Source: a virus (lineage: Duplodnaviria; Caudoviricetes). From it: a stretch of 64,000 nt of DNA. Positions 46,249 through 58,676 of this stretch are shown here, piece after piece. The stretch lies in the IMG/VR virus record IMGVR_UViG_3300046710_000261, positions 1 through 64,000 of that record. One strand, given 5' to 3'. Positions within the stretch are counted from its first letter, which is position 1. Each line of letters starts with the position of its first letter. Below the pieces are notes generated by a model that saw only the letters and a list, made by a program, of their open reading frames with translations, was not told the DNA's origin and ran no database searches. A program made the translations under genes and the position numbers.

Positions 46249-46737
46249 TTATCCTTTCAGTCTCATGAAAACTTCATCCAAGGGCAGAGGGCAATTTTTA
46301 ATCCATTTAATATCAGATTTTACAATCCATTTCGATAAATCAATTCCTTCAATATCAATCCCTTCAAAAATATTTAGTCTCAGGCTCTTATTTTGCGTTT
46401 CCATCTTCAAATTCAGCTTTTTGAAAGTCTCAACATCTTTTTGTTCATGAAGGGTAAGACAAATCCCATTAATATCATTCAAAACACTCAAAAAATCGGC
46501 TGTATTATCTGTTTTTGCTGTATATAAATAAATTTTAGTGTTTGTCTGGTTTCTAATCTGCCTGACGGTCTGTTTGACAAATTCGGGTCTCAATAAAGGC
46601 TCCCCTCCAGTCAACATAATTTCCGTATATCCAGAAAAATTGTCTGTCTCTGGTAATTCCTTGAGGTTCCAATCTTTATTACAACACCCCACACAATTCC
46701 TATTACAATTTTCAAATAAAAGAAGACGAAGTTTCAT
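46249..46737 (-). CDS. small radical SAM protein
   Basis: CNRNCVGCCN, LTGGEPLL. Confidence 0.8.
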   Translation of the reverse strand: MKLRLLLFENCNRNCVGCCNKDWNLKELPETDNFSGYTEIMLTGGEPLLRPEFVKQTVRQIRNQTNTKIYLYTAKTDNTADFLSVLNDINGICLTLHEQKDVETFKKLNLKMETQNKSLRLNIFEGIDIEGIDLSKWIVKSDIKWIKNCPLPLDEVFMRLKG

Positions 46738-55900: not shown

Positions 55901-55929
55901 ATTATAGCATATTATGGATTTCATGTCAA
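55901..55929 (-). promoter_or_regulatory. sigma70-type promoter
   Basis: TTGACA-17-TATAAT with TG extension, overlapping the mom stop codon. Confidence 0.75.
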
Positions 55930-56579
55930 GAGATTTCTTTTGGGTATGGCAAAACTTTCCATTTCAAGAATTTTCGGTCTTCTTTATCTGTAAAATAGAC
56001 ATATCTGTTCTTTTTAGAACGATAGACAACCCTCATTTTCTCTTTATCTCGTAACTCTTTTGGAATGCTCCTATGGTCTAAATCTCCAAAAGTGTAATCT
56101 TTGAAAGGAATTGATGTTCCTGTAAATATCCAATTAGTGGCCTGATAAACTTTCCCCGAATGCCCATATTTAGTATCGGCATAACTTACGAGAATTGTTC
56201 CTTTAGGAATTGTCCTTAAAACCCATCCGATAAATCGGCTTTCAGAATTTTTGGGACATTCATCTGCCATCCATAAACGATTTAGTTCAAAAACTTTTTT
56301 TGCTCTTTCTTCTCCCGCCACACCTTTAATCAATGTATGAGATGCTGGTTTACCTATGGTAAGAACGCCCACTAATCTATCTTCTAAAAAGGCACCGAAT
56401 GCCCAACTTGTAGGTGCCTTTCGATGAAGGTAGTGTTCTCTTACCACCATTTCCATTGCTACCTTATAATCTATTTGCTTAAATTTTAGTTGGAGCGGAG
56501 AGGTCGGACATGAACCGCCATCTTTCTTCTGGAAGGAAGACTGTTCTACTTGAACTATCACCGCTGTATTATTTTCCAT
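55926..56579 (-). CDS. mom: Mom-family (GNAT) DNA adenine hypermodification enzyme
   Basis: HYLH, ELNRLW, PKNSESRFI, VSYADT..GH.G.VYQATNW.FTG, KNRY, LPYPK. Confidence 0.85.
   Translation of the reverse strand: MENNTAVIVQVEQSSFQKKDGGSCPTSPLQLKFKQIDYKVAMEMVVREHYLHRKAPTSWAFGAFLEDRLVGVLTIGKPASHTLIKGVAGEERAKKVFELNRLWMADECPKNSESRFIGWVLRTIPKGTILVSYADTKYGHSGKVYQATNWIFTGTSIPFKDYTFGDLDHRSIPKELRDKEKMRVVYRSKKNRYVYFTDKEDRKFLKWKVLPYPKEIS
56491..56564 (-). ncRNA. tRNA-Gly(TCC)-like element inside the mom 5' coding region
   Basis: GCGGTGA/TCTCCGC-T-CCA acceptor, GTTC/GAAC D-arm, TCTTC-CTTCCA-GAAGA anticodon arm, GGCGG-TTCATGT-CCG(A)CC T-arm. Confidence 0.75.
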
Positions 56580-56613: not shown

Positions 56614-57750
56614 TTATTTCCATTCTTGATCTAATAATAAATCTTCTCTTCTCAAATCAAAATATTTCTTTGCTATCTCTGGATACTTTTCTTCCATTTT
56701 TTTAAGAGCATTTATTTCGGGATTTCGCTTCGCCTCTGCCTGAATAATACAATACTGTCTGAAACTTTTTTTCATGTAGTTTGGTACAAAATTACACCAT
56801 GTTTTTATTGTTTGATATACATCTCTATAAGGACCATCACACTCTTTATATCGCATAATATAAGGAAGACATCCATATTCCATGAGGATTTTTATTCTTT
56901 CAAATACATCTGTAATATCTTGTTCCCAAAACTCTTCATCGAATCGGTTATTTCTATCAAATCCACAGAAAACATATAACTTCGTTCTGCGTTTGGGATT
57001 TACATATTTTCTCCACATGCGGAGTTGTTTGATTATTGTTTCTTTGTCTTCAATATTATCAAAAGCAAAAATATAATCACCAAGGTATTTACAAGAAGAT
57101 ATAACTTTGGCCTTTTCCTCTGTCATCATTCTAATATCCATGCCTTGTTTGAATTGAAACGGATAACCTGTTTCAATGAGTTCATCGAAAACCTCGCGCC
57201 ATCTTGAATATCCCAAAATATTATCATCCCATAAAGATATTTTCTTTCTTGAAGGATCAAAAAATTCTTTTACATGGGCATGAAAAAACACTTTATCATA
57301 TTTCTTATTGACACAAAATTCACACTTGCGAAAACATCCTCTGGTTGTAAAGCCAATGGAATAGTCTTTATAATATTCAAGGCGTATTCTTTCTAATCCT
57401 TTTGTTTCCATTATTTTTACCCAATTATCATATAGATGATAGTCGGGTATATGATGTTCAATTTCATCAGGCAGATTTGGTGCGCTGTCAAAGAAAAAAC
57501 CTGTTCCACCATGTATTGTTTTTTTCAAAATACTTTCATCGAGAATGGTTCCAGTAAGAATTGTATCTGTGAATGCTTTTGATATATAAACCAAATCATA
57601 ATTATCAATGGTGTTATAATTTAGGAGCAGTTCTGTATTATCCCCCAATTCTTTATGATAACCAGATAATTTCATACAAGCAAGATTAGGAAAAGAATGG
57701 CCTTTTCTTCTTATAAGATCAGCGTCAATGATACCTATGCTTTTACTCAT
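56614..57750 (-). CDS. radical SAM protein (copy 2)
   Basis: TRGCFRKCEFC; clear paralog of 27042..28265. Confidence 0.85.
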   Translation of the reverse strand: MSKSIGIIDADLIRRKGHSFPNLACMKLSGYHKELGDNTELLLNYNTIDNYDLVYISKAFTDTILTGTILDESILKKTIHGGTGFFFDSAPNLPDEIEHHIPDYHLYDNWVKIMETKGLERIRLEYYKDYSIGFTTRGCFRKCEFCVNKKYDKVFFHAHVKEFFDPSRKKISLWDDNILGYSRWREVFDELIETGYPFQFKQGMDIRMMTEEKAKVISSCKYLGDYIFAFDNIEDKETIIKQLRMWRKYVNPKRRTKLYVFCGFDRNNRFDEEFWEQDITDVFERIKILMEYGCLPYIMRYKECDGPYRDVYQTIKTWCNFVPNYMKKSFRQYCIIQAEAKRNPEINALKKMEEKYPEIAKKYFDLRREDLLLDQEWK

Positions 57751-58676
57751 TTTAAACCATACTTTTTTGAAAGAACAGAATCATTTTTTATGAAACAGAA
57801 AACTTCATCACAAAAATATTCTATATTTTTGGGTATAACTATTTTCGATCTATTGTTTTTGATCCATTTATAATCAATATCAAGTATGCCAAATTTTTTA
57901 CAAAAATTTATTCCTGTAAGGGGTTCTCCAATACCAGTTATGCCCCCCTTACATGCATCCAAGGCTTCTTTATCTGTTTCTGCATCAAAACTGACAAAAT
58001 ATATTCTTGATTCGGTATATCCTTTTTCTTTGCAAATTTCAGAAGATTTTAATAGTTTTTGTCCAACTTCTTTGCCTTTTTCTGTATCAAATTCCGTTCC
58101 TTTCTTAATTTCATAAATATCGGAGGTCATTTTATTATTATCAAATTTTAATAAATCAAGCTCTATGCCCCGCGAAGTTTTATCCCCTTTTATTTTTTTG
58201 AGTATCTTGTAATTAAAATATATTTCTTCATTTTCTTTTACTAATGGTTTTCCCTCTTTCGCGGAATTTTCAAGCCACCCCATTTTCAGGAGTATGCATT
58301 TTACATCAAATACTAAAGCGTCACCTGTCTGTATTTTTGTAAGATGTGTTCTTGACATAAGATTGGCAAGAGATAAAGGAAGAATGTCTATATAAGCACT
58401 TTCTTTTTTGGGTTCATTTTCTGAAATTAATGTCGATATACTTTTTGGTTCTTTTGGCGGTTTTCTTTTTTCCCCTTTCATGGATTTTTTCATTACATCA
58501 CCCCTTGTTTCAGGATCAGGTTCCTGAAAATTTATCTGTTTATTGATTTCTCTTTTTATCTGTTTGCTGATATTTTTTCGGCATTCTTTGCAAAATGTTT
58601 CTTTTCCCTCATCAGGCACTACAAAAAAATATGCCAAACTTTCAGTAAGTGGTTTCTTACAATTATAACAAATCAT
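57747..58676 (-). CDS. PD-(D/E)XK restriction-like nuclease with N-terminal zinc finger
   Basis: CxxC..CxxC; ELDLL...IYEIKKG..FDTEK. Confidence 0.55.
   Translation of the reverse strand: MICYNCKKPLTESLAYFFVVPDEGKETFCKECRKNISKQIKREINKQINFQEPDPETRGDVMKKSMKGEKRKPPKEPKSISTLISENEPKKESAYIDILPLSLANLMSRTHLTKIQTGDALVFDVKCILLKMGWLENSAKEGKPLVKENEEIYFNYKILKKIKGDKTSRGIELDLLKFDNNKMTSDIYEIKKGTEFDTEKGKEVGQKLLKSSEICKEKGYTESRIYFVSFDAETDKEALDACKGGITGIGEPLTGINFCKKFGILDIDYKWIKNNRSKIVIPKNIEYFCDEVFCFIKNDSVLSKKYGLK

Follow-up and report, generated by a model that had tools for sequence, protein, structure and literature searches.

A tRNA-Gly-like RNA element embedded in the 5' coding region of a phage mom gene, and its relatives at other mom loci

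The mom locus and its embedded element

The window analysed here is a stretch of 64,000 nucleotides (positions 1 to 64,000) of the IMG/VR viral record IMGVR_UViG_3300046710_000261, a T4-like phage record of 155,948 bp that is about 70% complete. On its minus strand lies a mom open reading frame (ORF), and the 5' coding region of this ORF contains a tRNA-Gly-like element (Table 1). The Pfam family Mom (PF25680) matches residues 31-214 of the ORF (E 1.4e-41), which is also matched by phrog_1384 (E 6.4e-52). Identity to the Mom protein of phage Mu amounts to 32% from residue 30 on, and R101, S114 and D135 of the window protein align with Mu R111, S124 and D149, while K137 replaces R151. Since the PF25680 match begins at residue 31, the element fills exactly the N-terminal extension. 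In an AlphaFold2 model the pLDDT stays under 50 over residues 1-28 and exceeds 88 from residue 31 onwards; the peptide encoded by the element is thus predicted to be unstructured. Furthermore, the annotated Mom coding sequences of cultured phages begin about two amino acids before window residue 30, and the element is therefore an add-on.

The ATG of the window mom gene sits 15 nt 5' of the first nucleotide of the element (G1), and no in-frame ATG, GTG or TTG occurs in the window between the encoded CCA and the LKFKQI strand. The possibility that translation starts beyond the element was rejected, as the window offers no start codon ahead of M42, which itself lacks conservation.

As regards the neighbouring genes, a 378-aa radical SAM protein with a CxxxCxxC motif is encoded directly upstream of mom (56614-57750, minus strand); it matches phrog_9298 (E 5e-51) and has no Pfam match. 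The start of its gene overlaps the stop of an unassigned 309-aa ORF (57747-58676, minus strand). At the locus holding the closest relative (L110, with a 91%-identical Mom homologue) the neighbours are instead ribonucleotide reductase genes, and the radical SAM/mom pairing is therefore not conserved. A perfect match to a sigma-70-type promoter (TTGACA, 17 nt, TATAAT, with TG) at 55901-55929 on the minus strand begins at the mom stop codon and points toward the downstream genes; in L110, an equally perfect match is located about 30 nt upstream of the mom ATG.

Table 1. Coordinates of the mom gene, the tRNA-Gly-like element and its parts in the window
Feature	Position	Strand	Remarks
mom ORF, 217 aa	55926..56579	-	start ATG 56577-56579
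Mom GNAT core, residues 31-214	55938..56489	-	begins directly after CCA
tRNA-Gly-like element, 74 nt	56491..56564	-	codons 6-30 of mom, nt 16-89 of the ORF
Acceptor stem 5' strand, G1 C2 G3 G4 U5 G6 A7	56558..56564	-	pairs with 56495-56501
D arm, 4-bp stem and 5-nt loop AAGUA	56543..56555	-	D stem covaries in the family
Anticodon-like arm, 5-bp stem and 6-nt loop CUUCCA holding UCC	56525..56540	-	
T arm, 5 pairs, bulged A at 56504, 7-nt loop UUCAUGU (no A58)	56502..56519	-	
Acceptor 3' strand, discriminator U73 and encoded CCA (56491-56493)	56491..56501	-	

Within the element 20 of the 21 pairs are intact, the exception being a U-U mismatch at 5:68 in the acceptor stem (six of seven pairs formed), and the bulged A lies in the 3' strand of the T stem. 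Several hallmarks of a canonical tRNA are absent, as there is no 7-nt anticodon loop, no G18G19 and no UUCRA T loop with A58. The identity set of bacterial glycyl-tRNA synthetase (GlyRS), namely G1-C72, C2-G71, U73, C35 and C36, is present in full. Nevertheless, it is uncertain how C35 and C36 are placed in the geometry of a 6-nt loop, and actual charging with glycine is a possibility that can only be inferred.

Taken by itself, the window copy gives marginal evidence. The cloverleaf is the minimum free energy structure (RNAfold, -19.3 kcal/mol), with a z-score of only -1.27 against shuffled folds. The score against the Rfam tRNA model (RF00005) is 17.8 bits, below the gathering threshold of 29, which corresponds to an E-value of roughly 0.02 when rescaled to the tRNA model alone over 64 kb. 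ARAGORN makes no tRNA call at the element, and blastn of the region against cultured phages returned no match. A weak plus-strand match to the Rfam serC leader (E 0.03-0.12) is antisense to the anticodon-like arm and was set aside as chance. Since ARAGORN, Rfam and the shuffled folds are all marginal, they cannot decide the matter alone, and it is the relatives that settle whether the element is real. With the covariance model of the family described below (R1), the window copy scores 79.8 bits.

An earlier note on the window, made without database searches, had parsed the minus strand of this segment into a tRNA-Gly(TCC)-like cloverleaf with a 6-nt anticodon loop, a short D loop, a T-stem bulge and one acceptor mismatch, and this parse held exactly. 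The glycine identity set that it listed (G1-C72, C2-G71, G3-C70, U73, the TCC anticodon and CCA) also held in the window, and its three acceptor pairs and U73 proved near-invariant over 101 copies. Likewise, its claims that the element is read in frame and that no start codon precedes LKFKQI were borne out, while the tRNA-detector check that it proposed gave no ARAGORN call on the window copy.

Relatives of the element at other mom loci

A protein search retrieved about 2000 Mom relatives, of which the 40 closest share a conserved N-terminal motif reaching the start of the Mom core. The DNA of 80 metagenomic loci was compared for 5' copies, and the conserved feature in these mom loci was found to be a nucleotide element of about 76 nt. 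It is present in about 60 homologous metagenomic Mom loci with 45-72% protein identity: in 59 it lies in frame at the mom 5' end, and it is also found in L027 and the truncated L030. At one locus (L099) the element is unfused and lies in the leader, mom there having its own Shine-Dalgarno sequence (SD) and ATG. The 18 soil-clade loci among the 80 are without the element. Most relatives have a good SD and an ATG or GTG 7-13 nt upstream of G1, and in some members a start codon is found inside the D loop; with such starts just upstream and no start codon after the CCA, the element must be translated through. A scan of genome contigs gave eight loci, all from Acidobacteriota and Verrucomicrobiia, of which one has the element; a 5' copy is carried on the chromosome of an Acidobacteriota metagenome-assembled genome.

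The fold is strongly supported by comparison of the copies. In 35 unique 5' copies, 96.4% of the cells are paired, versus 43-51% in controls with slid partners. Double changes are seen in 13 of the 22 pairs, covariation extends to all four stems, and the covariation score is 0.37 versus 0.04-0.09 in the controls. RNAalifold independently yields the same cloverleaf from the 5' copies, bulge included. All five pairs of the anticodon-like arm covary, including the pair that closes the loop, whose sequence is AUUCCA in 29 of the 35 copies. Acceptor pairs 1-3 are invariant, while pairs 4, 5 and 7 covary across the family. The cloverleaf of the window is thus real and far beyond chance, a conclusion that rests on the comparison with relatives. 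ARAGORN calls only eight of 60 homologous 5' copies, five of them with a 2-base anticodon (equivalent to a 6-nt loop), and labels a few relatives tRNA-Gly(tcc).

As a separate observation, base 4 of the D loop and base 2 of the T loop (alignment columns 18 and 55) change together, being A-G in 24 copies and G-U in nine, with one exception. Such a pattern would be expected if the tertiary 18:55 contact were kept, which is possible, but the pattern may rest on one or two events only.

Several lines of evidence bear on whether the nucleotides or the encoded residues are conserved. Pairwise nucleotide identity is 78% inside the element versus 57% in the next 540 nt, and third codon positions are 75% identical inside it versus 39% downstream. 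The third positions of glycine (GGN) and proline (CCN) codons covary synonymously, and T-stem pair 51:63 runs through C-G, A-U and G-C by means of them. Amino acids also change together in ways that keep the acceptor pairs (CGD...TSPL versus RAD...TSAL). The D loop, which has 7 nt in the family, is 2 nt shorter in the clade of the window, which puts the 5' half into a reading frame different from that of most relatives; and in L110 a -1/+1 indel pair converts DGGS into MAVH, altering four residues while the RNA is kept. Judged by this nucleotide-level conservation and covariation, selection acts on the folded RNA and not on the encoded peptide. The peptide motif GGSIPTSPLQL was considered as the primary constraint and rejected, in view of the conservation and covariation at synonymous positions, the clade-dependent frame of the 5' half and the predicted disorder of the peptide.

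The distribution of the element is not confined to mom 5' ends. A covariance model built from the 5' copies was used to search other Mom loci, and in 20 of 26 IMG/VR loci with distant Mom proteins (27-36% identity) a similar RNA was found directly at the mom 3' end; apart from this Gly-like RNA, no other tRNA was called by ARAGORN in these 26 loci (L001-L026). Some of the 3' copies lie on the same strand as mom and overlap its last codons, with the mom stop codon inside the element, whereas others are convergent. The convergent copies have a TAnnTTTG box before them, which we take to be the Bacteroidetes -7 promoter element, and a T-run after them. A copy at the mom 3' end is also present in 57 of 79 IMG/VR loci of the type of Arthrobacter phage Zartrosa. 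In Zartrosa itself, a cultured phage (NC_049468.1), an unannotated 74-nt copy occurs at about 46463-46536 (L114:2098-2171); it shares 21 nt with the end of the annotated Mom coding sequence and is missed by ARAGORN. The phages Martha, Sonny and Shade have Mom genes near-identical to that of Zartrosa.

In this independent 3' set, pairing reaches 98.5% and 19 of 21 pairs have undergone double changes, with acceptor pairs 1-3 invariant and pairs 4-7 freely variable. Across 101 unique copies, G1-C72 is found in 101, C2-G71 in 100, G3-C70 in 100 and U73 in 95; all seven acceptor pairs form in 96 and the T-stem bulged A is kept in 83. CCA is encoded in 73 of the 101, many 3' copies being without it. 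The anticodon-like loops, of 5-7 nt, retain NCC, the first base of which varies (UCC, ACC and others), CC being present in every loop inspected. The commonest T-loop start among the 5'-embedded copies is UGC (25 of 39), whereas the window copy has UUC. In addition, 3' copies of 68-70 nt (L167, L200, L203, L216, L221 and similar loci, at about 1780-1870) were observed in which the D arm is reduced or missing but the acceptor stem is retained, as are the T arm with its bulge and a hairpin whose loop contains CC. Taken together, there is little doubt that the window cloverleaf is one member of a widespread RNA family that resembles tRNA-Gly and is physically linked to mom genes.

The family is nevertheless far from universal among Mom genes. 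The element was found in none of seven Mu-type loci, nor is it present at mom in the cultured phages Mu, Riggi, JeffCo, A511, phiSA_BS1, phiEf11 and vB_EauM-23 (in phiEf11, an unrelated tRNA-Asn lies 1.2 kb upstream of mom). Since many Mom genes, both of cultured phages and of the soil clade, are without the element, it is not required for Mom chemistry.

Within the family the window copy is among the most eroded, its defects being the U5-U68 mismatch, a D loop of only 5 nt and the lack of A58 in the T loop. L110 shares the U5-U68 mismatch and shows further T-loop indels, resulting in an 8-nt T loop. The nearest subclade (the window, L027 and L111) displays compensatory changes in the anticodon-like and T stems. 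The tRNA cluster of the same phage includes canonical tRNA-Gly(GCC) and tRNA-Gly(UCC) genes, with which glycine decoding is already covered; the window element resembles the other Mom-linked copies and differs from both of them. An odd tRNA to which ARAGORN assigns a 2-base anticodon 'tg' (again a 6-nt loop) was also noticed in this cluster (G000:C1:128534-128605; L249:1222-1293) and has no link to mom.

Proposed function and rival explanations

Mom transfers glycine from Gly-tRNAGly to adenine N6, accepting all three E. coli isoacceptors and rejecting Gly-tRNAAla (PMC13219725). The determinants of bacterial GlyRS are G1C72, C2G71, C35, C36 and U73 (PMC10464925), and the positions frozen in the family are exactly those read by this enzyme. 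Of the functions considered, the most likely is that of a private, non-translating glycine carrier for Mom, a reading which is as apt to fail as to hold and in which excision, charging and use by Mom are all inferred. In this scheme, RNase P would cut at G1 and 3' trimming to the encoded CCA would free the element from the mom transcript. Host GlyRS would then charge it via G1-C72, C2-G71, U73 and the CC of the loop, the 6-nt loop and bulged T stem would keep it off the ribosome and EF-Tu, and Mom would take the glycyl group from it to modify adenine in DNA. In the 5'-embedded form, excision would remove the start codon from the ORF, and a given transcript would yield either enzyme or carrier; since the start codon would be severed in this way, an effect in cis on mom expression or mRNA survival would be a likely by-product of the embedded form.

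The arrangement of the copies adds weight to a product acting in trans. Such a product is indicated by the unfused copy of L099 and by the convergent copies, which are equipped with a promoter-like box and a T-run, and since copies abut the 3' end of mom or converge on it, a purely cis-acting 5' operator cannot explain the family, so that release of a glycine donor is favoured. The short loop and the bulged T stem speak against use by the ribosome, as far as can be inferred from structure. Several considerations, however, speak against a carrier. The CCA of the embedded form is internal, and charging needs a cut that destroys the mRNA. The GlyRS of one bacterium requires the whole L shape (PMC10464925), and a loop of 5-6 nt could conceivably misplace C35 and C36. 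Moreover, the defects of the window copy and the T-loop indels of L110 leave room for the possibility that this lineage is decaying. Beyond a conserved structured RNA linked to mom, every step is inference, and no experiment exists.

A bolder reading, which we find slightly harder to believe than to doubt, treats the mom transcript as a two-product RNA in which the same 74-76 nt would serve either as the first codons of Mom or as an excised glycine carrier. Host GlyRS would charge this carrier, EF-Tu and the ribosome would ignore it, and Mom would use it to hypermodify phage DNA. As translation and excision would be mutually exclusive for each molecule, the overlap itself would set the ratio of enzyme to co-substrate.

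The main rival explanation, regulation of mom in cis, is rather unlikely but remains possible. Here the folded element would hinder the 30S subunit at a start codon 7-15 nt upstream; in variants of this explanation, Mom would bind the element in a substrate-mimic autoregulation like that of the thrS operator, or an RNase P cut would part the start codon from the ORF for good and limit a toxic enzyme. In its favour, the SD and ATG lie within the ribosome footprint (7-13 nt 5' of G1 in relatives, 15 nt in the window), the start codon of some members is in the D loop, translation of the mom gene of Mu is known to be tightly controlled by Com, and same-strand 3' copies enclose the mom stop codon. 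However, convergent copies, which possess a promoter-like box and a T-run of their own, are unable to act in sense on mom mRNA, the unfused copy of L099 leaves the SD and ATG of mom free, and the element is found at either end of the gene; furthermore, near-invariance of U73 and of the CC in a distant loop is better explained by synthetase recognition. Less credible still is an uncharged decoy or inhibitor acting in trans in an antitoxin-like manner, in which the freed RNA would bind Mom or GlyRS as a dead-end mimic and restrain Mom until late infection. The tight linkage of the two genes, on either side and either strand, is compatible with this explanation, as are the many 3' copies without encoded CCA and the deformed loops, which could also block charging. 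Against it, the family retains all GlyRS identity elements and 73 of 101 copies encode CCA, neither of which a mere binder would need, and a sequence other than CCA after the discriminator is normal for genes relying on CCA addition.

It is also unlikely, though not to be dismissed, that the window copy is a decaying remnant of an otherwise functional family, its lineage keeping only the open reading frame. The U5-U68 mismatch common to the window and L110, the shortened D loop, the T loops (UUCAUGU in the window versus an 8-nt variant in L110), whose indels are compensated only at the level of the frame, and the failure of both ARAGORN and the Rfam threshold on the window copy all fit decay. 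On the other hand, 20 of 21 pairs are intact, CCA, U73 and the UCC of the loop are kept, and the subclade of the window, L027 and L111 has compensatory changes in the anticodon-like and T stems. Finally, it can be ruled out almost completely that the cloverleaf arose by chance, that it is the relic of an attachment site or that it is an ordinary phage tRNA-Gly used in decoding. Phages do often carry tRNA genes and integrate at tRNA genes, and ARAGORN labels a few relatives tRNA-Gly(tcc); nevertheless, loops of 5-6 nt with a covarying closing pair, the bulged T stem and the forms with a reduced D arm do not suit an ordinary tRNA, and canonical tRNA-Gly genes exist elsewhere in the phage. The attachment-site relic was rejected outright, since both halves of the element covary, whereas a relic of this kind would preserve the 3' part alone, and since the loci are internal to contigs.

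The glycine-carrier reading is therefore retained as the preferred one, and the remaining claims of the earlier note can be judged against it. Its statement that glycyl-tRNA(Gly) is the donor for Mom is verified (PMC13219725). Its inference of a tRNA-Gly mimic in the mRNA of mom itself is supported at the core, the element being conserved, covarying, equipped with the GlyRS set and translated through. Its view that the element is probably not a decoding tRNA also held, given the lack of a normal anticodon loop and the canonical tRNA-Gly genes elsewhere. The check it had proposed, covariation across mom homologues, disclosed the fold, the covariation and retention of glycine identity, along with many Mom genes lacking the element. 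Of the three uses that it had offered (autoregulation, an RNase P off-switch and a dedicated glycine donor), family-wide evidence favours the third, the function remaining an inference.

Known systems and implications

A related structure has been on record for some time. McMurdie et al. (2011; PMC3146451) described a conserved tRNA-Gly-like 'pseudo-tRNA' in the ssrA islands of Dehalococcoides; it is about 76 bp long, is embedded in the first 150 bp of a mom homologue and forms a complete tRNA-Gly-like cloverleaf with the apparent anticodon DCC. The window element is alike in its size (74 nt), its position (nt 16-89 of the mom ORF) and its UCC loop. The settings differ, the pseudo-tRNA belonging to integrative islands of Dehalococcoides and a marine fosmid, and the window to a T4-like phage; moreover, the 3'-abutting and convergent forms of the present family were not described for Dehalococcoides (PMC3146451). 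No function was proposed for the pseudo-tRNA, because the tRNA dependence of Mom was then unknown.

That Mom uses glycine from charged tRNAGly was shown only in 2023-2026, the authors holding that the phage scavenges the host pool. Mu Mom, acting with host Gly-tRNAGly (Silva et al., 2026; PMC13219725), belongs to the same enzyme family PF25680, with R111, S124 and D149 conserved, and its type of co-substrate is what the window element imitates. Unlike the window, Mu has no such RNA at mom and relies on Com for translational control. Mom is described as scavenging host tRNA without mention of a phage-encoded or tRNA-like donor (PMC13219725), nor was either kind of donor mentioned in any of the Mom papers examined.

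A parallel in mode of working is offered by the non-proteogenic tRNAGly(UCC) species NP1-3 of Staphylococcus, which feed FmhB, FemA and FemB and bind EF-Tu and the ribosome poorly; in these, UGC or UGU replaces UUC in the T loop, and the D and T regions are altered (PMC7826273). They are glycine tRNAs reserved for a tRNA-dependent aminoacyl-transferase and have a UCC anticodon, and the window element likewise has UCC. They differ from it in being chromosomal, free-standing, restricted to the staphylococcal lineage, equipped with 7-nt anticodon loops and devoted to cell-wall synthesis (PMC7826273). The UUC in the T loop of the window copy is likewise unlike the UGC/UGU of NP1-3, while UGC is the commonest start among the 5'-embedded copies. 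By analogy, the window element may resemble NP1-3 in its working, with its behaviour towards EF-Tu and the ribosome only inferred, without being a member of the staphylococcal lineage.

tRNA shapes recognised by tRNA-binding enzymes also occur in mRNA and viral RNA, as in the thrS operator and the aminoacylatable 3' ends of the TYMV type. Of these, the thrS operator belongs to the leader and imitates the anticodon arm alone, while the plant-virus structures stand at the 3' end of RNA genomes; to our knowledge, neither doubles as coding sequence for the enzyme using the imitated tRNA. The carrier reading of the mom-linked RNA is unpublished in the literature searched, its function being inferred.

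If the carrier reading is true, it would explain the 'pseudo-tRNA' that has remained unexplained since 2011, and would provide a rare case of an RNA gene overlapping a protein-coding gene on the same strand with the RNA dominating selection. The element would also serve as an annotation marker, since such RNAs are missed by ARAGORN and stand unannotated in GenBank phages such as Zartrosa; the Arthrobacter Marthavirus phages represent a cultured system for direct tests. Furthermore, the staphylococcal Fem system would be joined by a second, independent case in which tRNAGly is partitioned off from translation. If carriers of this kind accompany many Mom genes, a DNA-modification pathway would for the first time have a tRNA-like co-substrate dedicated to it, and, should the bolder two-product reading hold, Mom and its carrier would together form a self-contained, horizontally mobile module for DNA hypermodification.
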